Shown one piece after another: positions 41,443-51,485 of a stretch of DNA of 64,000 nt (within the stretch, counting starts at the first letter, position 1; each line of letters begins with the position of its first letter). The position numbers and the translations under genes are program-made. Source of the stretch: Candidatus Binatia bacterium. GTDB taxonomy: Bacteria > Desulfobacterota > Binatia > HRBIN30. Under the pieces are notes generated by a model. That model was not told the DNA's origin, made no database searches, and was given only the letters and a program-made list of their open reading frames with translations. The DNA is taken from NCBI GenBank assembly GCA_038245295.1, contig JBBRSP010000004.1:64001-128000 (forward strand), written 5' to 3'.

Positions 41443-43821
41443 TCAGTCACCACCCTCGCCCTCGCCTCGTGGGGTTGGCGTCGGGGTGCGCGTCCACTGG
41501 GGCGCCCGTGTTGGCGTGGAAGTGCGCCGCAGCGTCGCCGTCAGTGTTGGTGTTAGCGTTGGCGTCGAGGTTCGGCGCTGGGTCGCCGTCAGTGTTGGCG
41601 TTGGCGTCGAGGTTCGGCGCTGGGTCGCCGTCAGTGTTGGCGTTGGCGTCGAGGTTCGGCGCTGGGTCGCCGTCAGTGTTGGCGTTGGCGTCGAGGTTCG
41701 TCGCGGGGTGACGGTTGGAGTTGTTGGCGTCGATGTCCGGCGGAGGGTCGGTGTCGAGGTTCGCGGCGCGGTCGGACTGGCAGTCGTTGATCGTGTTGGC
41801 GTGCGGACAGCGGTCGCTGTCGACGTCGCTACCGGCGGCACGCTCGCCGTCGGCGTCGCGGTCGGCCCGGCACTACCACCGACGGAGACCGAAACGGTTC
41901 CGAGGTTGGAATCCGTCGATCCGTCCCACGCGGCGAACGTGAAAGCGTCGCTGCCGCTGAAGCCGGCGTCGGGGAAGAAGGTCGCTTGCTTGCCAATCAA
42001 GCCAACCGTGCCGTGGCTCGGCTGCGTCACGATGCGCAAAGTCAGCGCATTGCCGTCGGCGTCCGCAGCGCGCAGCATCAACCCGGCCGGCGTGTTGATC
42101 GGCGTGCTGATCGACGCGTTGCTCACCACCGCCGCGCGGTTCGGATTCGCGTTCTCGCTCGATGGACCCTGGTGGCAGGTGTAACAACCGACTTGGAAGC
42201 CGCGCCACAAGTACTTGGTGCCAAACTCGGTGCTCAGCATGCGGTCGCCCTGCGAGCGCGACAGCACCGTGCCGCGATAGTCCTGCCCGTGACATCCCTG
42301 GCATTGCGACGCGCCGCCGCTCTCGACCGCATTCGGGTGCTGCTGGACCCACGTGCTGCCCACCGGATGCATCCCATGCGGCCCGCCGCTGACGGTATTG
42401 GGTTGCGTCGCGTGACAGCTCGTACATTCCGCCAGCATGCCGACGTGGCCCTGGTGCTCGATACTCTGGATGTTGTCGTTCGGGTGCAGCGCCGGGAACT
42501 CGGCGTGCGTCGATCCGTGGCAGCCTTCGCACTTCACGCCGCCGTGGCCGGTGGAGAAGCGGTATAGGTTGAGCCCCGCCGCCGGCGTGTCGCTGTTGGT
42601 GGCGAACGTCTGGTTCACCGCGACGCGCGGCTGCCCCGCGTTGTCGAAAATCGATGTGTAGCGGATCTGGCCGTTGTTGTTGGTCGCCGTGCCGCTGTGG
42701 CAGCTCTGGCAGCTCGGTTCGTTGAGCCATCCGGTGCGATTCGGCGAAGCGACCTGCGCCATGGTGCCGTGGCAGCTCTGGCACTGCATGGAGAGGGTTC
42801 CGTCGGCCGCCACCGCCGCTCCCATGGCGCCGCGCAGGCAGCGCGTCGCCGATCCCGGATGGCATTGGTAACAAGCCGTGCGGCCACTGCTGCCCTGATC
42901 AAGCCATTGATGGCGGCTGTGAATCGCTTGCGTCAGCGGCTTGATTCCGGCGCGGCCGCTGCCCGGTAGCGCTTCCGACAAGTGACAGCTGGCGCACAGA
43001 ATCGACGTCCCGCCGCGTGCCGTCGCTTCCAGGCCACTGGGGTCGTAGGCCGCTTGCGCCAGGGCATTCTGGTAGAGCGGATCGTAGGCGTTACGGTCGT
43101 CGTGAAGGCGCAGAACGTTGAGTCGAAAGTCGCGCTCCGGATCGGCCTCGTGAGCCCAGCCAGAGGACGGCACGGCGCCGCTGGTCGAATCGGAGCTGTG
43201 GCAGCCTTTGCAATTCATCTCGTCCGAAACGGGCAGAACAATATCGAGAGAGGCGAGCAAGCTGCCGCTGCTGTCGCGCGCCACCAGACGCATCATGGGA
43301 TAGTAGTTCTTGTGACCGGCGTCGTCGTACGGCGTGATCGGAATGCCTTCGGCGATGAACCACTTCGAGGCCGGGTCCCAGGTCATGACCTGCGGCACGT
43401 TGCCGCTGCCCGGCATGTTCTTTCCGGCCAGACCGGCATTCGTCGTGGTTGGAGCGCCGGCACCGAACAGCTGTCGCGTGTGGTCCCAGAAGTTGGTCTT
43501 GCCGGCCGACGTCGTGTTGATCGATCCGGTGGGGTCGCTGACCGCTTCATAGGTGACACGGAGCCCGGCCGTCGTCGGATCGGTGATCAGCGTGCCTTGC
43601 GGGTCGATGAGTTGTGCGTGGATGGTGTTGTACGGCGGCAGAATGGAGAACAACTGGTAATCGGCATCCATGCAGTGCATGCCGAGATTGTTCCAGCCTA
43701 CGAGCTTCCAGTTGGCGGCAGCTGCCGGCGTTACACCGAGGAGGCAGCCGGCCAACAGGACCAGCGCGAGCTGTTGTGCCGAAAATCGAGCCTGTCGCGT
43801 TGTCGAATGGTGTTGTTGCAT
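41443..43821 (-). CDS. Secreted multiheme cytochrome c (9 CxxCH) with Ig-like domain and Thr/Pro/Arg tail
   Basis: CKGCH, CASCH, CYQCH, CQSCH x2, CEGCH, CTSCH, CQGCH, CYTCH; WNNLGMHC N-terminal domain; DADG..LT..P.HG..F.G.D.FT Ig-like domain. Confidence 0.9.
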   Translation of the reverse strand: MQQHHSTTRQARFSAQQLALVLLAGCLLGVTPAAAANWKLVGWNNLGMHCMDADYQLFSILPPYNTIHAQLIDPQGTLITDPTTAGLRVTYEAVSDPTGSINTTSAGKTNFWDHTRQLFGAGAPTTTNAGLAGKNMPGSGNVPQVMTWDPASKWFIAEGIPITPYDDAGHKNYYPMMRLVARDSSGSLLASLDIVLPVSDEMNCKGCHSSDSTSGAVPSSGWAHEADPERDFRLNVLRLHDDRNAYDPLYQNALAQAAYDPSGLEATARGGTSILCASCHLSEALPGSGRAGIKPLTQAIHSRHQWLDQGSSGRTACYQCHPGSATRCLRGAMGAAVAADGTLSMQCQSCHGTMAQVASPNRTGWLNEPSCQSCHSGTATNNNGQIRYTSIFDNAGQPRVAVNQTFATNSDTPAAGLNLYRFSTGHGGVKCEGCHGSTHAEFPALHPNDNIQSIEHQGHVGMLAECTSCHATQPNTVSGGPHGMHPVGSTWVQQHPNAVESGGASQCQGCHGQDYRGTVLSRSQGDRMLSTEFGTKYLWRGFQVGCYTCHQGPSSENANPNRAAVVSNASISTPINTPAGLMLRAADADGNALTLRIVTQPSHGTVGLIGKQATFFPDAGFSGSDAFTFAAWDGSTDSNLGTVSVSVGGSAGPTATPTASVPPVATSTATAVRTPTRSTTASPTAPRTSTPTLRRTSTPTTPTVTPRRTSTPTPTLTATQRRTSTPTPTLTATQRRTSTPTPTLTATQRRTSTPTLTPTLTATLRRTSTPTRAPQWTRTPTPTPRGEGEGGD
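41556..41700 (-). repeat. Perfect 42-bp tandem repeat (3.5 copies) encoding RRTSTPTPTLTATQ
   Basis: Unit GCGTTGGCGTCGAGGTTCGGCGCTGGGTCGCCGTCAGTGTTG at 41556, 41598, 41640, partial at 41682. Confidence 0.95.
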
Positions 43822-43850
43822 GGGCGTTGTCACTCCTCATACGAGAGGAA

Positions 43851-43866: not shown

Positions 43867-44079
43867 AGGCGACGATCGGCATGGGCCTCGAATTTATGGG
43901 ACTCGGGGGCGGGAGATCAGGGTCGGGCTGCAGGATCTTGCGCGTGGGGCGCCAGAAACTGCGGACGAAGGAGCCGCGTGGCTGGTGGCCGCGCGGCGGA
44001 GACGCATGCGGTCTCCGCCGCTGTAACCGCAGATGGAAGAATCACGGGCGACGCGACGCCTGCGCCCTGATCCGCACCA

Positions 44080-46125
44080 TTAGATCACGTACTCGAAGCG
44101 GAACTGGACATTGTCGCGATCCTTCAGCAAGCTGACGCCGCTGCCGCCCTTGAGCGTGTGCGCGTCAATGATGCTGTAGTCGATGCTGAAGCGGAAGGGA
44201 TCCTGAATCAGCGTGACGCCGGGCTGATACACGAACGAGCCGCCCCAATCATAGAAGAACACCATCTCGGGATTGATCGTGCCGCTGCGGTACGAGGTGG
44301 TGATGAACAAGGTCTGCAAGAATTGGTCGGCCGGTTCGGTGATGAACAACGGATCTAGGCGACCAACATTGGAGCCGCGCAGGAAGAAGTCCAGTTGGTC
44401 ACGGGTAATTGGCAGCACCTGGCGATGCGGATTGGTGATGGTGACCGTGCACGTTGGATCAGTCGAATTCGGATTGTTGCGGCAGGCGGCATTATCCTGA
44501 TTGCGCAGATGCAGCACCTCGGGACCGCTTTCGGCACCCTGGAGGTGTTTGTAGAAGAACTGCGTCGACATGAAGAAGGTTTGATTCGGATTGAGGAAGC
44601 GAATCCATTGGTCGTGGTCGAGCCCGAGAACGAAGTTGATGGAATCTGACCGCGCGCCGCCACCTGTCTGCGGCACGATGCCCTTGTCGATCTGCGAGCG
44701 GTACTGCGACCAGATATCGGGGTTCGACTTCACAGTCCGAGGATAGAACTTCGGATACATGTTGAAGAAAAACGGATCGATCTGTCCCTGGGTAAACGAC
44801 GGTTCTCCGTGGAAGAAGGCAAACTCCGAACGCACGACGCTGTAGAGAGAAGGCACCGCGAATGTCGACGAAACACCGGTAATCTGAACCCGTGGCGCAT
44901 CCTGGATCGTGTGAGCCGGCGCACCGCAGTGCAGGTTGTTCGGATCCTCGGGCGCGGAGCTATCAAACGGGCGGGTCGGACAAGGACGTCCGTCGTCGTG
45001 GGCGAAGAGCAGCGTACCCCGCGTGCCTGCGCCGGCGACCATGGTTGGCGGCCCGCCGTAGCCCGAGGTGCGGACCGAGAGACGCGGCGTGTCGAGATAC
45101 GTGTAGTAGTGGGCAATGCCGAATGTCGCGTCGAACACGTTGAATTTCAGGATGCCACCGCCGCGCGCCTCGCTGAACGTTCGTGACGGCGTATAACTAA
45201 AGTTCTTCGCCGCGATCGACGGCGCGCCCAGACTAGGCAAAGCCCAGGGTGAACCGGCGGGGGTACCGGGGGCAAAGCCGACCTGACTGTCGGCGGATAC
45301 GTATCCTTGGACAAACGCGTCGGTAAACGGTCCGGCGTTTCCCAGGTAGTACGTCGCCAGCAGCATATCGAGCGGTACGCGGCGTTCGTCGAGAGAAATC
45401 AGGAAGCCGCCGAACGAGCTGTCGACTGGATTGATCTGATCCATCAAACGAAAGCCGTCGGTCTCGCCCCAGGAGAGGATCTGCCGACCGATGCGCAGGG
45501 TGAGATCTCCAGCTTCGGTCTCGACGTAGGCCTGGAAGAGGCGTTCGCGGTCGGCCCCAAGGTTACGCAGCGCGCGCCGTTCGGCCAGCGTATCATGATG
45601 CTCCTGGGCGCCGACCACCTTGCCATTCTCGAACCCGCCGACGGCACCGTTGGGCAGGTCGTTTTTCGCCAGGAGCTTGAACTCCTGCGCCGTGCTGTAC
45701 TCGCGCGGGCCCCAATCATACAGGCCGTCGGCCTCGCCGCGGAACGTGGCATGGTACTTCAGGTTCTTCAGACGGAAAGGCAAACCGTTGATCAACGACA
45801 GAGGTCCGACGCCCTCCTTCACCAGGCGCATCAGATTGTGATCGAACTCCGCTTCGACGAAGAAGCGATTTTGCCGCAAGTGTCCGGCGTCGGAGCGTGG
45901 GAACGTGCCGCTATCGGAGATGTATGGAGTGCCGTCACCGGTCTTCTTGACGACGCTGTCGTGTGTCTGCTCGGTTCCGATGCGAGCGTTCACATACGAC
46001 CGCATCCCGAGCTTGATGTCTCCGTCCTTATCGAGCGAGATCGCCCGCGCCGTTGATCCAACCAACACGGCGCCCGCCAACGCGGCAGCGACCGTCCCTA
46101 AAGTCCTAAGCGTCAATCGCACCAT
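44080..46125 (-). CDS. DUF1302-family outer-membrane protein
   Basis: Signal peptide, RIGRQILSWGETD.F...D.INP.D, C-terminal DRDNVQFRFEYVI. Confidence 0.8.
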   Translation of the reverse strand: MVRLTLRTLGTVAAALAGAVLVGSTARAISLDKDGDIKLGMRSYVNARIGTEQTHDSVVKKTGDGTPYISDSGTFPRSDAGHLRQNRFFVEAEFDHNLMRLVKEGVGPLSLINGLPFRLKNLKYHATFRGEADGLYDWGPREYSTAQEFKLLAKNDLPNGAVGGFENGKVVGAQEHHDTLAERRALRNLGADRERLFQAYVETEAGDLTLRIGRQILSWGETDGFRLMDQINPVDSSFGGFLISLDERRVPLDMLLATYYLGNAGPFTDAFVQGYVSADSQVGFAPGTPAGSPWALPSLGAPSIAAKNFSYTPSRTFSEARGGGILKFNVFDATFGIAHYYTYLDTPRLSVRTSGYGGPPTMVAGAGTRGTLLFAHDDGRPCPTRPFDSSAPEDPNNLHCGAPAHTIQDAPRVQITGVSSTFAVPSLYSVVRSEFAFFHGEPSFTQGQIDPFFFNMYPKFYPRTVKSNPDIWSQYRSQIDKGIVPQTGGGARSDSINFVLGLDHDQWIRFLNPNQTFFMSTQFFYKHLQGAESGPEVLHLRNQDNAACRNNPNSTDPTCTVTITNPHRQVLPITRDQLDFFLRGSNVGRLDPLFITEPADQFLQTLFITTSYRSGTINPEMVFFYDWGGSFVYQPGVTLIQDPFRFSIDYSIIDAHTLKGGSGVSLLKDRDNVQFRFEYVI

Positions 46126-46205
46126 CGGGACCCCTCCTCTCACAACATGTGCGGGTTCCCTACGCCATCAGAACGCGACAGAGCAAGCATTAGTCGCACG
46201 TGAAA

Positions 46206-46228
46206 TTTTCGACGCGTCGCGTCGAAAA
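46206..46228. promoter_or_regulatory. Perfect palindrome, candidate operator
   Basis: TTTTCGACGCG-T-CGCGTCGAAAA, ~80 bp upstream of the DUF1302 start. Confidence 0.5.
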
Positions 46229-46603
46229 CACACGTCATTCCTCGCTCGAACGCGACCCGATCTGTCAGCGATACGCACCGTCAGACGTGTCGGGCTTGTC
46301 CGCCAACCGCATCAAATACACTGGAATATCAACCCATTTCGCATCGCATTACGAGATCACGCGAGCGTTTTCGGGCACACGGGTCTGAGCGCTAGGATAC
46401 GGCATCGGTGAACCTTCGACGTGCGCGGCACGCCCAGGCAAGCCGAGAAGATTTTGGAGGCAGGAGGCAATCAATGAGGAATTCGTGGTGGCTGCGTCGG
46501 GGTTTGCTCGTACGGATCGCTCTGGTTCAGATTCCGGAGCCGCCGTCGAACATGTCGTCGCGCACCGGCGCCTGGCTGATCGAGCTGCCGGGCGGGACGC
46601 GGA

Positions 46604-46897
46604 GAACTGCTGCAAGAGAACATACTTCCGCGGGTCGGAGGCAACAATCGATTCGGCCTTGGCGATGGCGCCGCTCATGCCGCGCGCCCCCTCCGTCAGC
46701 ACCAACTTGGCGCCGTAGGCGACGAGCAACTTTCGCCGCTCGACGCACATCGTATCCGGCATGGTCAGGGTGATCGGATAGACGCGCGCGGCGGCCACGA
46801 AAGCGAGTGCAATGCCGGTATTACCGCTGGTCGGCTCGACGAGCTCCTTACCGGGGCCAAGCAAACCGCGGCGCTCGGCATCCCACACCATGGCCGC
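46604..46897 (-). pseudogene. cysK: Internal fragment of cysteine synthase A
   Basis: [29 protein letters not shown]; lacks the N-terminal PLP-lysine segment and the C-terminal half. Confidence 0.88.
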
Positions 46898-47119
46898 GCA
46901 CAGGTTGACGAACGCGAAAGGCCATTCGCGCGTGTCGTCCATCACCCAACTCCAGGCGTCGACAAATTCCGGGATGTCATGCCGGTGCGGCGATTCACGA
47001 TGACGTAGAACACAGGCAACGGCATCGTCGAGCACGGCAAAGGCCAGGCGGTGCGCCGGCGAACTCTTGGTCTGCGCCGACGCGGCCAGTTGTGCCGGCA
47101 GCGTGGCGACATCTTCCAT
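46898..47119 (-). pseudogene. N-terminal fragment of a small conserved hypothetical protein, fused in frame to the cysK fragment
   Basis: [11 protein letters not shown]...W......WPFAFVNLC motif. Confidence 0.5.
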
Positions 47120-47173
47120 CTCGGGCTCGCGCCGACGCTTGCAAGGCGATGTTGCCGGCGCGGCCGCAGCCCG

Positions 47174-47251
47174 CAACGACTGGCGCAACTTGACGGCGCC
47201 GATCTCGGGCCCGAGCGCCGCGGTGAGTGGGGTGATCGAAAGTGAGCTCAT
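47174..47251 (-). pseudogene. N-terminal stub of a TauD/TfdA-family dioxygenase
   Basis: [26 protein letters not shown] resembles the TauD N-terminus (ITPL...IGAEI.GVDL); SD GAAGGA. Confidence 0.6.
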
Positions 47252-47363
47252 GGTACGTGGTCCTTCTGTTGAGTGGGCAGCCGAGTCGAAGCGCGACGCG
47301 TCACACCTCGTCCCAATCGTTGAGAAGTTGCGGCGTCGGCTGACGTGGGCTCGGGTCGGTGGA

Positions 47364-47468
47364 TTACTCGGGCAACGCTCTCGCGGCTCCAATCACGCTG
47401 CGGCTAATCTCGAGGCGGGTCGCGACTTCCCAGTCGATGGGTCGCAGCAGTTCAAATCGGTTGGTCAT
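47364..47468 (-). CDS. 34-aa small ORF or gene stub ([34 protein letters not shown])
   Basis: Strong SD AAGGAG; first ORF after the attenuator terminator. Confidence 0.35.
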
Positions 47469-47531
47469 TTGTCTCTCCTTCAGTCGTCGCAGCTCCATGT
47501 CGGCAGCGACCGCGGCACAGGCGCCACGGCC

Positions 47532-47570
47532 AAAATGGAAAGGCCCGGGAGCAGAGACTCCCGGGCCTTT
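47532..47570 (-). terminator. Intrinsic terminator of the putative attenuator
   Basis: AAAGGCCCGGGAG-tctctg-CTCCCGGGCCTTT followed by CCATTTT. Confidence 0.85.
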
Positions 47571-47594
47571 AGAATTGCGATGATGAGTTCGAGA

Positions 47595-47693
47595 CTACGA
47601 AGAGGCGAGACCGAACGCGGCGCAATCCAGGGCTCGGGAGGACTCCCAGGCCTTGGTACAACAGCAGCAGCAGTTGATGCGCACAGCGTTCAC
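47595..47693 (-). CDS. Poly-cysteine leader peptide (M)NAVRINCCCCCTKAWESSRALDCAAFGLASS; alternative ATG start at 47705
   Basis: TGC TGC TGC TGT TGT at 47672-47658; ends 25 nt before the terminator; TTGACA at 47729-47724. Confidence 0.75.
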   Translation of the reverse strand: MNAVRINCCCCCTKAWESSRALDCAAFGLASS

Positions 47694-47876
47694 GAGCGGC
47701 TGCATCCGAAAACGAAGGTCGCGTGTCAATATCGTCTGGCGTGACTCGACAACAAATCTCGCAAGGGAGTGGCCGCTTCTGTCGGGCAGGGGCGCGGGCG
47801 CGGGCAAGAAAACACACCGTTCCCCTTGGCAGGTTCGCGCGCTTGCCCTTGCCCGACGCAGTCGGAACGCATCCGG

Positions 47877-49556
47877 CTACGACCAGCCTTTCGCCTCGTC
47901 ACTGACTTGGCGGATCGACTCGATCTGTTGCGCGATGGTTGGGAGGTTTTGCGTCAGCAACCGGTGCTCGCTGCGACGCGGGTCGATCTGGGTTTCGATC
48001 TTGATCGTCGCTGCAGCGCCGGCGGCGCGAGCGGCGATCTCCTCGACTTGCCGATTCGTCGTTGCACTGGCCGCCGCATTCGCCTGCAGGCCAACGTCAC
48101 TGATCCAAGCCGCCTGCGCAGCGACATCGGCGTCGAGCGTGGCTCCCTCCAATGTGGCGACGCCGGGCAGAAACCAATTGCGCCACATGGCGCGGCGCAA
48201 CAGACGCAGGCGACCACTCGTGGCTCGGACGTTGCGATCCTCCGTGGTCAGCCGCGCGATCGCCAATTCCGTGCGTGGACGTTCGCGCCCAACGAACTCG
48301 GCCGGGAACGCCGCGGCCAGATCGCGAACCCGGTGCAGGAAGGCGCGCAACGTGTTGCTGATACCTTCGGCGTATTCGCGATTTACCTTGGCCAGCTCGC
48401 GCTCCAAGCCGCCGAGGTGGCCGCTGCGCATCCAAGCGCGCGACGCGGCGCGAATCTTGTTTCGCAATTCGGTGGCGTTCTTCTTCGATCCGTCGATTGC
48501 TTCATGCGCAGCGCGCGCCGTCGCCGCTTCGAACTCGCGGAAGCGCCCATAGACAGCGTCGGATTCTTGCTGCGCCTGCGCTGTAACGAGATCGAGGCGC
48601 TCCTGTGCCGCGGCAATCTCCTCCACCAACTCCCGTTCGCGCTGGCGCAAGGGTTCTTGTACCCCCGCCAGGTATTGCTGCACACGTTTTGCGGTTTCGC
48701 GCAGCGACGCAACGTCGCGACCGGACGACGTCACAAACTTCGCTAACGCTTGAGTAAACGTCGCCAGCCCACTCTCGGCCTTGGCAATGACGTCGGCGCG
48801 ACCGGCAAATCCGGCGCGTGCATCCACAAGGAACAGCTCGTGCGCCCCGGCAACCTTTTCGCGCAGCGTCGCCGCATGCCGACTGCGCTCCGACGACGTC
48901 AGCTCGGCGCATGCCGTGTCGAGGTTCCAGACAACGAACATCTTGGTAAGGTCGCGCTGCAACCGTTCCATCAAGCGCCGCGTGAACTGTGTAAACAGCG
49001 CCGGGTAACGCACGACCAGGACCACGGCGTCGAGTGAAGCGAGCAGATCATTGGTCACCTTGTCGAACTGGTCGTCACTGCCGAGGCCTGGCGTATCGAG
49101 CAGATCGACCTGGCCGCCGAGCTGGAGAACGTCAGCGGGGGTTTCCACGACTACCTCGGCAACACCGGCACCTTCGCGCATGCGTTGTTCGAGCTCTGGG
49201 AGGCTATGCAGTTCATCTCCGCCGACGTGCCAAACGGTTTGTGAGCCGTAGGTGACCCGCACCGGCACGGAGGTCAGCGGATCAAAAGCCATGGGCGACA
49301 GACCAGCGCCGGCGATGGCGTTGATCAACGTCGACTTGCCGGCCTTGATTTCGCCGTAGAGGGCGATGCGAATGCGACGGCTCTCGAAGTCGTGGATCAT
49401 GCCGTCGAGTGTCTCCAGGGTTTCGCCCGGCAACAAATGTGCGTGCGGCGCCAGCGCCGCCCGTGTTTCGGCCAAGGCCTCCGCCATGGCCGTGGCGAGT
49501 ACTCCGTGAGCCCGTGCTTCCAATTGATGCGAGTCAAGTTTGCTGCGGTCTTCCAT
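47877..49556 (-). CDS. Bacterial dynamin-like GTPase
   Basis: GEIKAGKST (G1), P.T (G2), DTPG (G3), long helical C-terminus. Confidence 0.85.
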   Translation of the reverse strand: MEDRSKLDSHQLEARAHGVLATAMAEALAETRAALAPHAHLLPGETLETLDGMIHDFESRRIRIALYGEIKAGKSTLINAIAGAGLSPMAFDPLTSVPVRVTYGSQTVWHVGGDELHSLPELEQRMREGAGVAEVVVETPADVLQLGGQVDLLDTPGLGSDDQFDKVTNDLLASLDAVVLVVRYPALFTQFTRRLMERLQRDLTKMFVVWNLDTACAELTSSERSRHAATLREKVAGAHELFLVDARAGFAGRADVIAKAESGLATFTQALAKFVTSSGRDVASLRETAKRVQQYLAGVQEPLRQRERELVEEIAAAQERLDLVTAQAQQESDAVYGRFREFEAATARAAHEAIDGSKKNATELRNKIRAASRAWMRSGHLGGLERELAKVNREYAEGISNTLRAFLHRVRDLAAAFPAEFVGRERPRTELAIARLTTEDRNVRATSGRLRLLRRAMWRNWFLPGVATLEGATLDADVAAQAAWISDVGLQANAAASATTNRQVEEIAARAAGAAATIKIETQIDPRRSEHRLLTQNLPTIAQQIESIRQVSDEAKGWS

Positions 49557-50697
49557 CCTCGTTCCTTGCTGCGAAGTGCGGCATGACCTCGCGCGCGAAC
49601 AGCTCCATTGTCTTATACGCCTTGTCGCGGGGCATATCACCGGTCCGTCCGCCGCCGATGAACAGTCCAAAGCCAAGATCCTTTTGGATCTCCCGCAAAC
49701 GATCGGTGACGGTGCGAGGACTGCCGACCAACACGTAACCGCCCTTCTCCAATTCGGCGAACGACAGGTCTCCCGGCGTGCGCAACCCGGCGGCGAGAAA
49801 CTTTCGCAATGACTCTTCGGTGATGTAGCCCGGCGGCAACAAGAAGTTGGGCGGGATCTTTAGGCCGCGGCGGTACAGCCACAGCATATGCGGCGCCGCT
49901 TCCTCGCGCGCTTGCGCATCGGTCTCGGCGACATACGTCGGGATCGCGAAACCGATCTGCGACGGCGATGCCGTATAACCCGCCGCTTCGGCCGCCGCCT
50001 TGTACTCGTCGATGAGCCGTTTGGTTTGCGCGTACGAGGTGAACACGCTGATGAATGGATAGCGACGTTGCGCCGCCCAACGGATGGTCTCGGTGCTGCC
50101 TTGCGACGGCAACCAGATCGGCGGGTGCGGCTGCTGTAAGGGACGCGGCCAGATGTTGGCGTAGCGCACCTGGTAGTGCTCGCCCTCGAAGCTGAACGGA
50201 CCATCCTCGGTCCACGCGCGCAGAATCAAGTCGTGCGCTTCGTAAAAGCGATCGCGAGAGTAGGTCGGGTTGATGCCGAACGACACGTATTCGCAACCGA
50301 TGCCGCGCACGAAGCCGGAAATGATGCGGCCGCCCGACATGACGTCGAGCATGGCGATCTCCTCGGCGATACGCAGCGGGTGATCGCGCAGCGGCAAAGC
50401 GTTGCCGAGAATAGCGATCTTGGCGCGCGAGGTGCGACGCACCAGCGCCGCAGCCATCAGGTTCGGCGACGGCATAGTCCCGTAGGCGTTCTGATGATGC
50501 TCGTTTACAGCCAGGCCGTGGTAGCCGAGTGTCTCGGCGTACTCCATTTCGTCGAGGTACTCGTTGTAGAGCTCGTGACCGCGACGCGGGTCGTAGTACT
50601 TGTTCGACAGGGTCACCCATGACGAAGGATGGTTGCGGTCGAAGTCGTCCGGCAGGTGCGGCCACGGCATCAAGTGGAAATAGTAGAACTCGATCAC
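49534..50697 (-). CDS. LLM class flavin-dependent oxidoreductase
   Basis: NEHH, PLRIAEEIAMLD.MSGGR, P.QQPHPPIW, ELFAREVMPHF. Confidence 0.93.
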   Translation of the reverse strand: MIEFYYFHLMPWPHLPDDFDRNHPSSWVTLSNKYYDPRRGHELYNEYLDEMEYAETLGYHGLAVNEHHQNAYGTMPSPNLMAAALVRRTSRAKIAILGNALPLRDHPLRIAEEIAMLDVMSGGRIISGFVRGIGCEYVSFGINPTYSRDRFYEAHDLILRAWTEDGPFSFEGEHYQVRYANIWPRPLQQPHPPIWLPSQGSTETIRWAAQRRYPFISVFTSYAQTKRLIDEYKAAAEAAGYTASPSQIGFAIPTYVAETDAQAREEAAPHMLWLYRRGLKIPPNFLLPPGYITEESLRKFLAAGLRTPGDLSFAELEKGGYVLVGSPRTVTDRLREIQKDLGFGLFIGGGRTGDMPRDKAYKTMELFAREVMPHFAARNEDGRPQQT

Positions 50698-51485
50698 GGC
50701 TTGGCCTCGCTCTCCTGCTTCAAAAAGGCGATGGCGTGCGCCAAAAAAGCTTCGCTTTGCTCAAACGGTGGGAAGTGTCCGCAGCGTGGCAGGACCGTCA
50801 AGCGCGCCCCCGGGATCAACCGGGCATACGCCTCGCCATGCGGCAGCGGTAGGAATGCATCATCCTCGCCCCACACGACGAGTGTTGGCGCGGTGATTCG
50901 ACCAAGGCGACGAGCCAGCTTCGGGTTGTACATGTAAGGGTTCCACGTCAGTCGCGCCAAGGTGGTCGTCTCCCGGTAGGCACGCACGATGACCTCCGGA
51001 CCGAGGTCCGTCGTCACCAGCTGCGGCCAGCGCGTCTGATCGTAGAACAATCGCTGCAAGGTCTCCTCGATGGGATGCGTGAAGACGTCGAACCGGGTGA
51101 CACCGTCGACCTTCAATCCGGCGGCATCCACCAAGACCAAACGCTCGACACGCCGCGGGAACCAACTGGCAAATTCGGCAGCGATCCAGCCGCCGAGCGA
51201 CAGACCCATGATAGAGACACGTTCAAGCCCGAGGGTATCGAGGAGGTCGGCATAGTGCAGCACCAGGTCATCGATGCCCGAAAGCCACTCCGGTCTCTCA
51301 CTTGGGCCGAAGCCGAGATGATCGGGAGCGATCACCTGGAAACGCGCCGCAAGCGCATCGTGGTAGGGAAACCAACGATTCGAAGCGAACTGCGGCGGTA
51401 GAACTACGAGCGGCGCACCGCGACCGCCGCGCAGAAGGTGCGTGTTCACGCCGCGCACGGAGATCATCTCACTGCGATACGCCAT
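50694..51485 (-). CDS. Alpha/beta-fold hydrolase
   Basis: GLSLGG, WGEDD, CGH; GTGA overlap with the LLM gene. Confidence 0.9.
   Translation of the reverse strand: MAYRSEMISVRGVNTHLLRGGRGAPLVVLPPQFASNRWFPYHDALAARFQVIAPDHLGFGPSERPEWLSGIDDLVLHYADLLDTLGLERVSIMGLSLGGWIAAEFASWFPRRVERLVLVDAAGLKVDGVTRFDVFTHPIEETLQRLFYDQTRWPQLVTTDLGPEVIVRAYRETTTLARLTWNPYMYNPKLARRLGRITAPTLVVWGEDDAFLPLPHGEAYARLIPGARLTVLPRCGHFPPFEQSEAFLAHAIAFLKQESEAKP

Follow-up and report, generated by a model that had tools for sequence, protein, structure and literature searches.

The stretch of DNA considered here (the window) comprises 64,000 nucleotides (nt) of the genome of a Candidatus Binatia bacterium (assembly GCA_038245295.1, contig JBBRSP010000004.1, positions 64,001 to 128,000 of the forward strand). 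On its minus strand, ahead of a 347-residue open reading frame (ORF) at 46349-47392, lies a leader with promoter-like hexamers, a short ORF (sORF) containing five consecutive cysteine codons, and three hairpins of which the last has the form of an intrinsic terminator. This putative cysteine-sensing transcription attenuator, together with the family of similar leaders to which it belongs, is the subject of the analysis. Its parts, in the order in which they would be transcribed, are the following.

47724-47729, minus strand: -35 hexamer TTGACA, read from the sequence; TTGAC is shared by relatives.
47701-47706, minus strand: -10-like hexamer GATGCA, weak; relatives have CATTTT, TATCAA or CATAAA.
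47595-47693, minus strand: leader sORF of 32 codons plus stop (TAG, 47597-47595), encoding the peptide VNAVRINCCCCCTKAWESSRALDCAAFGLASS.
47658-47672, minus strand: five consecutive Cys codons TGCTGCTGCTGTTGT, the proposed sensing codons.
47643-47656, minus strand: segment 1, the 5' arm of the anti-antiterminator hairpin P1, from the RNA fold and the alignment.
47627-47640, minus strand: segment 2, the partner of either segment 1 or segment 3.
47571-47626, minus strand: middle hairpin P2, with the closing stem GAUUGCG/CGCAAUUC and the stop codon TAG in its upper part.
47558-47570, minus strand: segment 3, which serves the terminator as its 5' arm and the antiterminator as its 3' arm.
47539-47551, minus strand: segment 4, the 3' arm of the terminator, followed by the tail CCATTTTGG.
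47530-47538, minus strand: interrupted U-tract CCAUUUUGG, after the UUU of the stem.

A preliminary description of the locus had read TTGACA, a 17-nt spacer, GATGCA, a further 7 nt and a GTG start codon (47693-47691) ahead of a 32-codon ORF with five Cys codons and four pairing segments, and all of these were found again on the minus strand at the positions given. In the alignment relatives have ATG where this copy has GTG, and a (TGY)5 run occurs a single time in the 64-kilobase (kb) window and in none of 100 shuffles. The minimum-energy fold of the RNA from 47710 to 47525 consists of three hairpins, namely 1:2, a middle hairpin bearing the stop codon, and the terminator, with an energy of -75.6 kcal/mol compared to -60.7 +/- 3.8 kcal/mol for 200 dinucleotide shuffles, none of which equals it (z = -3.9). 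In this fold hairpin 1:2 has 11 pairs over 13 positions; the 5' arm of its main helix, GGCCUGGGA (47652-47644), begins 6 nt past the last Cys codon, and its outer CCA pairs begin 2 nt past that codon. Segments 1 and 3 differ by one mismatch in 12 positions (AAGGCCTGGGAG versus AAGGCCCGGGAG), and segment 2 can pair with segment 3 at 9 of 10 positions, so that the resemblance of the two segments and both pairing counts, as first described, were reproduced when the sequence and fold were read again.

In the window copy, P2 places segments 2 and 3 side by side, and the terminator is a GC-rich stem of 13-14 base pairs (bp) followed by the U-tract; at this place the relatives in the nine-copy alignment introduced below have TTTTCGTTTT or TTTTTGTTTT. 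A simple consensus scan of the window lists neither the promoter nor the terminator of this leader. Absence of the promoter from the list agrees with the weak -10 already remarked on in the preliminary description, whereas absence of the terminator is attributed here to the interruption of the U-tract, the scan itself stating no reason. The covariance models of Rfam 15 give no match at an expectation value (E) of 1 or below on either strand of positions 44000-51000.

The leader is one of a family. A BLAST search with the 261-nt region identified another copy within the window's own genome (G000:C33:35882-36052) as well as copies in relatives that are 70-76% identical, with the similarity extending exactly from the Cys codons through the terminator. 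Nine aligned copies share TTGAC, which is invariant among them, a -10-like box, ATG AAC, the Cys cluster, AAGGCCUGGGAG, CUC(C/U)CGCGCC, GCGUUCA and the terminator. These nine copies served to construct a covariance model (R1) whose structure comprises P1 and the terminator only. With a threshold of E <= 1e-3 the model has matches in 30 of 52 genomes of the order, a tally that includes one genome (G050) not used further, and with E <= 1e-5 in 38 of 151 genomes sampled from the class. The families with matches are f1-f5, f7, f9, f12 (12/17) and f13 (11/17), and none was found in the searched genomes of families f6, f8, f10, f11 and f14-f19. Judged by these matches, the leader is widespread in the class Binatia (9 of the 19 sampled families), and in several genomes it is present in 2-5 copies. 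Four weak R1 matches (G045b, G004d, G039b and G043, at 65, 37, 28 and 28 bits, respectively) have no convincing Cys cluster or P1; they were rejected as family members and are left out of all counts.

An exact-motif scan of one genome per species, covering 185,579 species, returned 20 loci, and R1 confirms 17 of them as full-length. Eleven of the 17 are labelled Candidatus Binatia, and the others 'Bacterium HR30', 'uncultured delta proteobacterium', 'uncultured bacterium' (two loci) and 'Candidatus Margulisiibacteriota' (two loci in one metagenome-assembled genome, MAG). Among the loci returned there is no record labelled Actinobacteria. The three loci that R1 does not confirm come from one Verrucomicrobiota MAG and two archaeal MAGs, and they amount to about what chance would supply for a motif of ~38 bits by our own estimate. 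The MAG labelled Candidatus Margulisiibacteriota carries two full-length leaders of the Binatia type (L053, DATKMS010000016.1; L066, DATKMS010000490.1), and its label or binning looks doubtful.

The genes that follow the leader are mostly genes of sulfur metabolism. Among 39 unique copies, 25 precede sbp, encoding the substrate-binding protein of a sulfate ABC transporter (TIGR00971/NF008022), often with cysT and cysW next in line, while cysT is the first gene recognised behind two others, and two precede a full-length cysK, in one case followed by cysE. Sulfur genes (sbp, cysT, or cysK with or without cysE) thus stand behind 29 of the 39 copies, among them the second copy in the window's own genome, which is located upstream of sbp-cysT-cysW (L052), and the intact leader-cysK units of two other genomes (G051 and G062). 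The idea that the Cys run and the hairpins should be conserved upstream of sulfur genes in relatives was therefore borne out. Two further copies (in G016 and G004) precede a gene of an uncharacterised small-protein family that is described below, and no cysS gene was found downstream of any of the copies examined. The first downstream ORF mostly begins ~10-100 nt from the end of the element, with some of the listed ORFs 130-350 nt away.

On one contig (G004:C62; L048, L049 and L034), four leader copies lie within ~18 kb, preceding sbp, an unknown ORF of 101 residues, an ORF with the C-terminal part of CysE, and a small-family gene. The arrangement has the look of a sulfur island in which each transcription unit has its own leader.

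In 37 of the 39 unique copies, an ATG, GTG or TTG codon no more than 6 nt from model position 1 opens a frame that contains at least two Cys codons side by side, and the sORFs so defined have 27-37 codons; in the remaining two copies the Cys codons are separated. TTGAC is found upstream of 35 of the 37 leaders that yield a peptide, and in 34 of these 35 the start codon is 7-14 nt past the -10-like hexamer, with a distance of 2 nt in the remaining one. A start codon so close behind the -10 leaves no space for a Shine-Dalgarno sequence, and the spacing suggests that the leader messenger RNA (mRNA) is leaderless or nearly so. From the last Cys codon to the first base of the main P1 helix the distance is exactly two codons throughout the aligned family.

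Column statistics from 31 aligned copies separate the Cys run from the remainder of the peptide. At the penultimate Cys codon the first base is T in 29 of 31 copies, the second is G in all 31, and the third is T in 19 and C in 11; because the codon varies at its third base alone, the variation is purely synonymous. The last Cys codon is TGT in 31/31. Past the Cys run, in the region of segments 1 and 2, mean entropy at third codon positions is 0.89, compared to 0.68 and 0.64 at first and second positions, and the codon after Ala is UGG (Trp) in 14 copies and CGG (Arg) in 16, both of which pair with G75, by U-G or by C-G. Since third positions are nearly as conserved as the others and the Trp/Arg exchange is neutral for pairing, the constraint appears to act here on the RNA and not on the peptide. 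The Cys codons would accordingly be selected as codons, and the rest of the leader as RNA.

The choice among Cys codons is also biased. UGU accounts for 111 of the 133 Cys codons in the clusters of the 37 leaders, against a fraction of 0.32 in the 1,121 long ORFs of the genome, the GC content of which is 62.7%. Such a preference for a minor codon appears to resemble that of classical attenuators. By a hand count of these related sequences, 16 of the 37 leaders have a Met codon in the Cys cluster, immediately behind it or at most two codons ahead of it, as in AMCCCC, CCCMCC and CMCCC; such a codon may reflect sensing of both sulfur amino acids, or an alternative start.

Support for the helices comes from a 31-sequence model alignment (A4). 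Across P1 and the terminator, 96.4% of cells are paired, and 8 pairs show compensatory change, in 20 cells; none of 500 shuffles reaches a score as high, and no more than 65% of cells are paired when the partners are slid against each other. For the terminator helix by itself, the corresponding values are 97.4% of cells paired and compensatory change in 6 pairs. The antiterminator 2:3, which is no part of the structure of R1, has 96.7% of its cells paired and 3 pairs changed on both sides, in 7 cells, a covariation score that 0/500 shuffles match, with at most 63% paired when the partners are slid. For instance, column 183 is A in five sequences, and all five have U at column 73, its partner in 2:3. 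The closing stem of P2 is 70% paired with 12 compensatory cells, and 4 of 500 shuffles score as high. This stem lies directly between segments 2 and 3, and for that reason the 2:3 helix is expected to stack on P2. The sole strictly conserved unpaired stretch of the leader is the Cys-codon run.

In contrast, two other structural candidates were set aside. P2 is not an energetically special hairpin (mean z = -0.6), and its support from covariation is limited to the closing stem. A pairing of the start-codon region, UGAACGC:GCGUUCA, proposed by RNAalifold, is formed in 75% of cells, and its covariation score is matched by 147 of 500 shuffles; the z-scores of the duplex average -1.5. In the window, (A/G)UGAACGC at 47693-47687 can pair with GCGUUCA/G at 47614-47608, on the 3' side of segment 2, and this pairing is seen in several minimum-energy folds.

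The exchange of pairing partners was followed by folding 40 unique copies, with a stalled ribosome represented by masking everything from the 5' end up to 10 nt beyond the last Cys codon, which was taken to be in the A site. The footprint length is a textbook assumption. In transcripts ending after segment 3, masking makes 2:3 (at least 7 pairs) the minimum-energy fold in 36 of the 40 copies, the window copy included, as had been anticipated for an RNA with segment 1 covered. In full-length RNA without a mask, the terminator (at least 11 pairs) forms in 35/40. The window copy runs through the whole series, with 1:2 when unmasked, 2:3 upon stalling, 1:2 again with the ribosome at the stop codon, and the terminator at full length. 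In a working switch P1 would form ~70 nt before segment 3 has been transcribed, and 2:3 would have to be in place before segment 4 is made.

Taken together, the anatomy of the leader, its conservation, its linkage to sulfur genes and an alternative pairing that persists through sequence change make it likely that the element belongs to a conserved Binatia family of ribosome-mediated (leader-peptide) transcription attenuators, predicted to sense cysteine supply. Comparative genomics therefore favours the reading as a trp/his-type attenuator that the preliminary description had put forward. The start of transcription, the stalling of the ribosome, the kinetic competition and the response to cysteine are what we infer from these features. 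Transcription would begin at, or a few bases from, the start codon of the ~30-codon sORF. Most of the 3-6 Cys codons of this sORF are UGU, the minor codon, and the last of them lies 6 nt short of the P1 main helix. With ample Cys-tRNA(Cys), the ribosome would proceed to the stop codon in the middle hairpin and P1 would re-form behind it, sequestering segment 2; with segment 2 sequestered, the 3:4 intrinsic terminator would fold and transcription would end. When charged tRNA(Cys) is scarce, the ribosome would stall at the last Cys codons and cover the 5' arm of P1; by reaching ~10 nt past the codon in the A site it would open the outer half of that hairpin. In the stalled state segment 2 would pair with segment 3 as the latter emerges, the P2 stem holding the two adjacent, and with 2:3 formed there would be no terminator and RNA polymerase would enter the downstream genes. 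In relatives, and at the second copy in the window's genome, these target genes would be sbp-cysT-cysW, for sulfate uptake, or cysK-cysE.

Several observations weigh against this interpretation. Unmasked transcripts ending after segment 3 fold into 1:2 in 9 of 40 copies, into 2:3 in 17, and into neither in 14, and in full-length RNA carrying the stall mask the terminator is still the optimum in 38/40. Thermodynamics alone does not yield a switch, and therefore a kinetic, co-transcriptional order of folding must be assumed; the trp leader has similar energetics and is a kinetic switch. The P2 energies quoted above are no better than those of shuffles, and the position of the transcription start is derived from promoter spacing alone. 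A look for RNA sequencing runs covering positions 46900-48100 turned up none. Because the alignment, made up of related sequences, was fitted to P1 and the terminator, the pair counts favour both of these helices. Pairing of 2:3 follows in part from that of 1:2, as segments 1 and 3 are near-repeats; the informative point is that the two repeats remain alike while both change. Ten of the 39 copies have no verified sulfur gene downstream, namely the window copy, two at contig ends, one that was not scanned, the two before a small-protein gene, and four without a family match. In two of these four, the downstream ORFs look by eye like out-of-frame shadows of sbp. No leader precedes the intact cysK of the window's own genome, even with filters off (best score 3.6 bits), and the window copy itself combines the -10 GATGCA, a GTG start, an interrupted U-tract and a cargo of patchwork fragments.

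Other functions can be imagined for the same leader. Conservation of the sORF and its Cys cluster across the class, with the consensus ..CCCC[TI][KQE]A[WR][EG].SRA.G.AAF, is what would be expected if the sORF encoded a functional Cys-rich micro-protein, metal- or redox-active for example, with the hairpin as its own terminator and the sulfur genes transcribed from promoters of their own. Past the Cys run, however, conservation is at the nucleotide level and includes third positions, the Trp/Arg swap fits pairing and not peptide chemistry, and the N- and C-terminal parts of the peptide vary freely; in addition, segments 1 and 3 remain alike, 2:3 pairing is kept, and the first downstream ORF is mostly only ~10-100 nt away, making a micro-protein a very improbable explanation. 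A riboswitch-like RNA that binds a ligand or a protein in response to a sulfur metabolite, and for which translation of the sORF is irrelevant, is highly improbable in spite of the fact that three conserved helices followed by a terminator are the layout of many riboswitches. It finds no match among Rfam families, and it does not account for a start codon that keeps its place behind the promoter and in 37/39 copies shares its frame with the Cys cluster, for variation of the Cys codons that is synonymous only, or for a strictly conserved unpaired stretch that consists of the Cys run, with P2 lacking an energy signal. As for the mode of action, the sole experimentally studied leaderless poly-Cys sORF, from mycobacteria, works translationally by unmasking a Shine-Dalgarno sequence (Canestrari et al., 10.1101/834739, as presented there). 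It is scarcely likely that the Binatia leader acts in this manner, as the helix that alternates with 2:3 is a GC-rich stem of 13-14 bp with a U-tract and ends before the start of the downstream gene. Attenuation by transcription termination remains the preferred account of the family.

Whether the window copy still works as such a switch is a separate question, on which the genes behind it bear. ORF 46349-47392 is a patchwork joined in a single frame, in which two pieces can be recognised.

46601-46897, minus strand: internal cysK fragment of 99 residues (residues 166-264 of the ORF).
46898-47146, minus strand: core fragment of the small-protein family (residues ~83-165), fused in frame to the cysK fragment.

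The preliminary description had recognised remnants of cysK and of a tauD-like gene downstream of the leader. The cysK remnant stands: the fragment matches positions 41-142 of 298 in TIGR01139 and 44-137 of 295 in PALP, and it has 87% protein and 81% DNA identity to the intact cysK of the genome (contig C18). In contrast, the TauD remnant does not, being a stretch of 25 residues that bears a weak, non-significant resemblance to a TauD N-terminus (32% identity to the TauD encoded in this genome; E = 0.27 in a comparison with four sequences) and has no match to Pfam TauD. Taken alone, then, the window copy has just a cysK fragment downstream in the place of a sulfur gene. No flank is common to the window locus and the most similar leader locus (G016), or any of the others, the small-family piece excepted, and the -10 of the window copy is the poorest of the set. 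On this sequence evidence the window copy most likely descends from a leader-cysK unit like those still intact in G051 and G062 and is now orphaned or in decay, and the patchwork ORF could be the product of a rearrangement or of mis-assembly of the MAG.

The contrary view is that the window copy is still a working switch, controlling the 347-residue chimeric ORF, its small-protein part, or the DUF1302 outer-membrane gene at 44080-46143. In its favour, this copy retains every RNA pairing as well as the Cys run, the consensus scan predicts no promoter-like site in the interval from the terminator to the ORFs that follow, and members of the small-protein family do stand behind Cys leaders in G016 and G004. 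This view is nevertheless unlikely, in light of the weak -10, the GTG start and the interrupted U-tract, of a cysK part that is an internal fragment (model positions 41-142 of 298), of two flanks in which, the small-family piece excepted, no synteny with other leader loci was found, and of the leaders of relatives, none of which was found to precede a DUF1302 gene. The reading retained here is that the window copy is orphaned or decaying.

Classical leader-peptide attenuators of Proteobacteria include trpL, hisL, leuL, thrL, ilvL and pheL, and to our knowledge cysteine has long been absent from the amino acids known to be under classical attenuation. Like them, the Binatia leader has a short ORF rich in codons of the regulated amino acid, the mutually exclusive pairings 1:2, 2:3 and 3:4, and an intrinsic terminator, and its cargo makes or imports the amino acid that it would sense. 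It differs from them in its predicted sensing of cysteine, in an sORF that apparently opens the transcript and lacks a Shine-Dalgarno sequence, and in its occurrence in Binatia with no sequence relation to the known leaders. Unlike in trpL, the stop codon is past segment 2, inside P2, and segment 2 would be recaptured by the refolding of P1 rather than by ribosome cover.

A closer parallel to the sensor is found in the polycysteine leaderless sORFs of mycobacteria, described as a 'Cys ribulon' (Canestrari et al., bioRxiv 10.1101/834739; Mol Microbiol 2020). Shared with them, according to the text of that study, are a consecutive-Cys sORF placed first in cysteine-related operons and several loci per genome; the Binatia sORF may likewise be leaderless, with the ribosome as its putative sensor. 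The mycobacterial sORF studied, which is also cited as translational in a passage of PMC13236596, is contrasted by its authors with terminator-based models, the mode at other loci being left undetermined in their account, and their Discussion refers to classical leader-peptide attenuators. Unlike in the mycobacterial case as presented there, the alternating helix in Binatia is a strong intrinsic terminator, and the phylum is another one.

Two further precedents have Cys codons in a leader. The uORFC-8-2 motif upstream of cysS in Rhodobacterales, predicted to be a ribosome-mediated attenuator (RNA Biol 2021, PMC8632094), has, as outlined in that article, tandem Cys codons in an upstream ORF and a terminator stem with a U-run, in which it is like the Binatia leader. 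According to the same outline, its two Cys codons are inside the first stem, it always precedes cysS, it has two stems, and it belongs to Alphaproteobacteria, whereas the Binatia leader has 3-6 Cys codons on the 5' side of the first stem, precedes sbp-cysTW or cysK-cysE, and has three stems and an antiterminator. Short ORFs with runs of Cys codons before cysteine genes were also reported for Actinobacteria by comparative genomics in 2005 (PMC1262725), in the relevant section without obvious terminators or conserved hairpins and with a suggestion of Rho dependence. In Binatia, unlike in the leaders described in that section, conservation is highest in the terminator and the alternative hairpins.

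In a survey of premature terminators (PMC2965389), cysteine is mentioned in the reference list only. The literature search found nothing on a terminator-based Cys attenuator before sbp or cysK or in Binatia, and among titles in the Binatota/Binatia literature there was none about RNA regulation. The remark in the preliminary description that no such terminator-based Cys attenuator was known to it in this kind of Gram-negative lineage has to be tempered in view of the predicted cysS upstream ORF and terminator of Rhodobacterales (PMC8632094, as outlined there). The Binatia leaders appear to be a new family of a known kind of regulator, uniting a predicted leaderless start with a classical terminator switch.

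What the family offers is a complete textbook device, with sensing codons, 1:2, 2:3 and a terminator, positioned before sulfate-uptake and cysteine-synthase operons in a class of an uncultured phylum. The device is compact, at ~165 nt, and its logic is amenable to in vitro testing; it is also a sequence marker for sulfur regulons in Binatia MAGs, in which gene callers overlook the sORF, and a further example, outside Actinobacteria, of sORFs with a putative leaderless start (as judged from promoter spacing) that would act as sensors. A broader proposal, possible if rather doubtful, is that the multi-copy leaderless poly-Cys leaders constitute a class-wide, ribosome-read sulfur regulon, in which they gauge both sulfur amino acids and the terminator coordinates sulfate uptake, cysteine synthesis and the small-protein family. 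Gauging of both amino acids is suggested because a Met codon is often beside the Cys run and because of the bias towards the minor codon UGU. If true, such a regulon would join the logic of the mycobacterial leaderless 'ribulon' to the classical terminator mechanism.

The other genes around the window copy have no evident link to sulfur. They encode, all on the minus strand, a 796-residue protein with multihaem cytochrome c motifs and Big_9/cadherin-like domains (41443-43833), the DUF1302 protein, which has a signal-peptide-like N-terminus (44080-46143), and a dynamin-family GTPase (47877-49676).

The small-protein family represented in the patchwork ORF consists of proteins of ~125-160 residues. 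It has no match in Pfam or NCBIfam at E <= 0.1, except for a chance-level match to NOP2_rpt (E = 0.08). Its core reads ..LP(A/S)Q.. / ..RL(M/V)(I/L)AVL.DA(I/V)DC.. / ..W.(F/Y)SFE.(I/V)C.., and at least five intact paralogues are present in the window's genome. Members were located as follows, the last two lines being further members.

L083, 1948-2391, plus strand: small-family member.
L084, 1808-2182, plus strand: small-family member.
L085, 1968-2345, minus strand: small-family member.
L086, 1871-2248, minus strand: small-family member.
L087, 1991-2473, plus strand: small-family member.
L023, 682-990, minus strand: further small-family member.
L034, 630-1310, minus strand: further small-family member.

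This small-protein family may belong to the same regulon as the Cys leaders.

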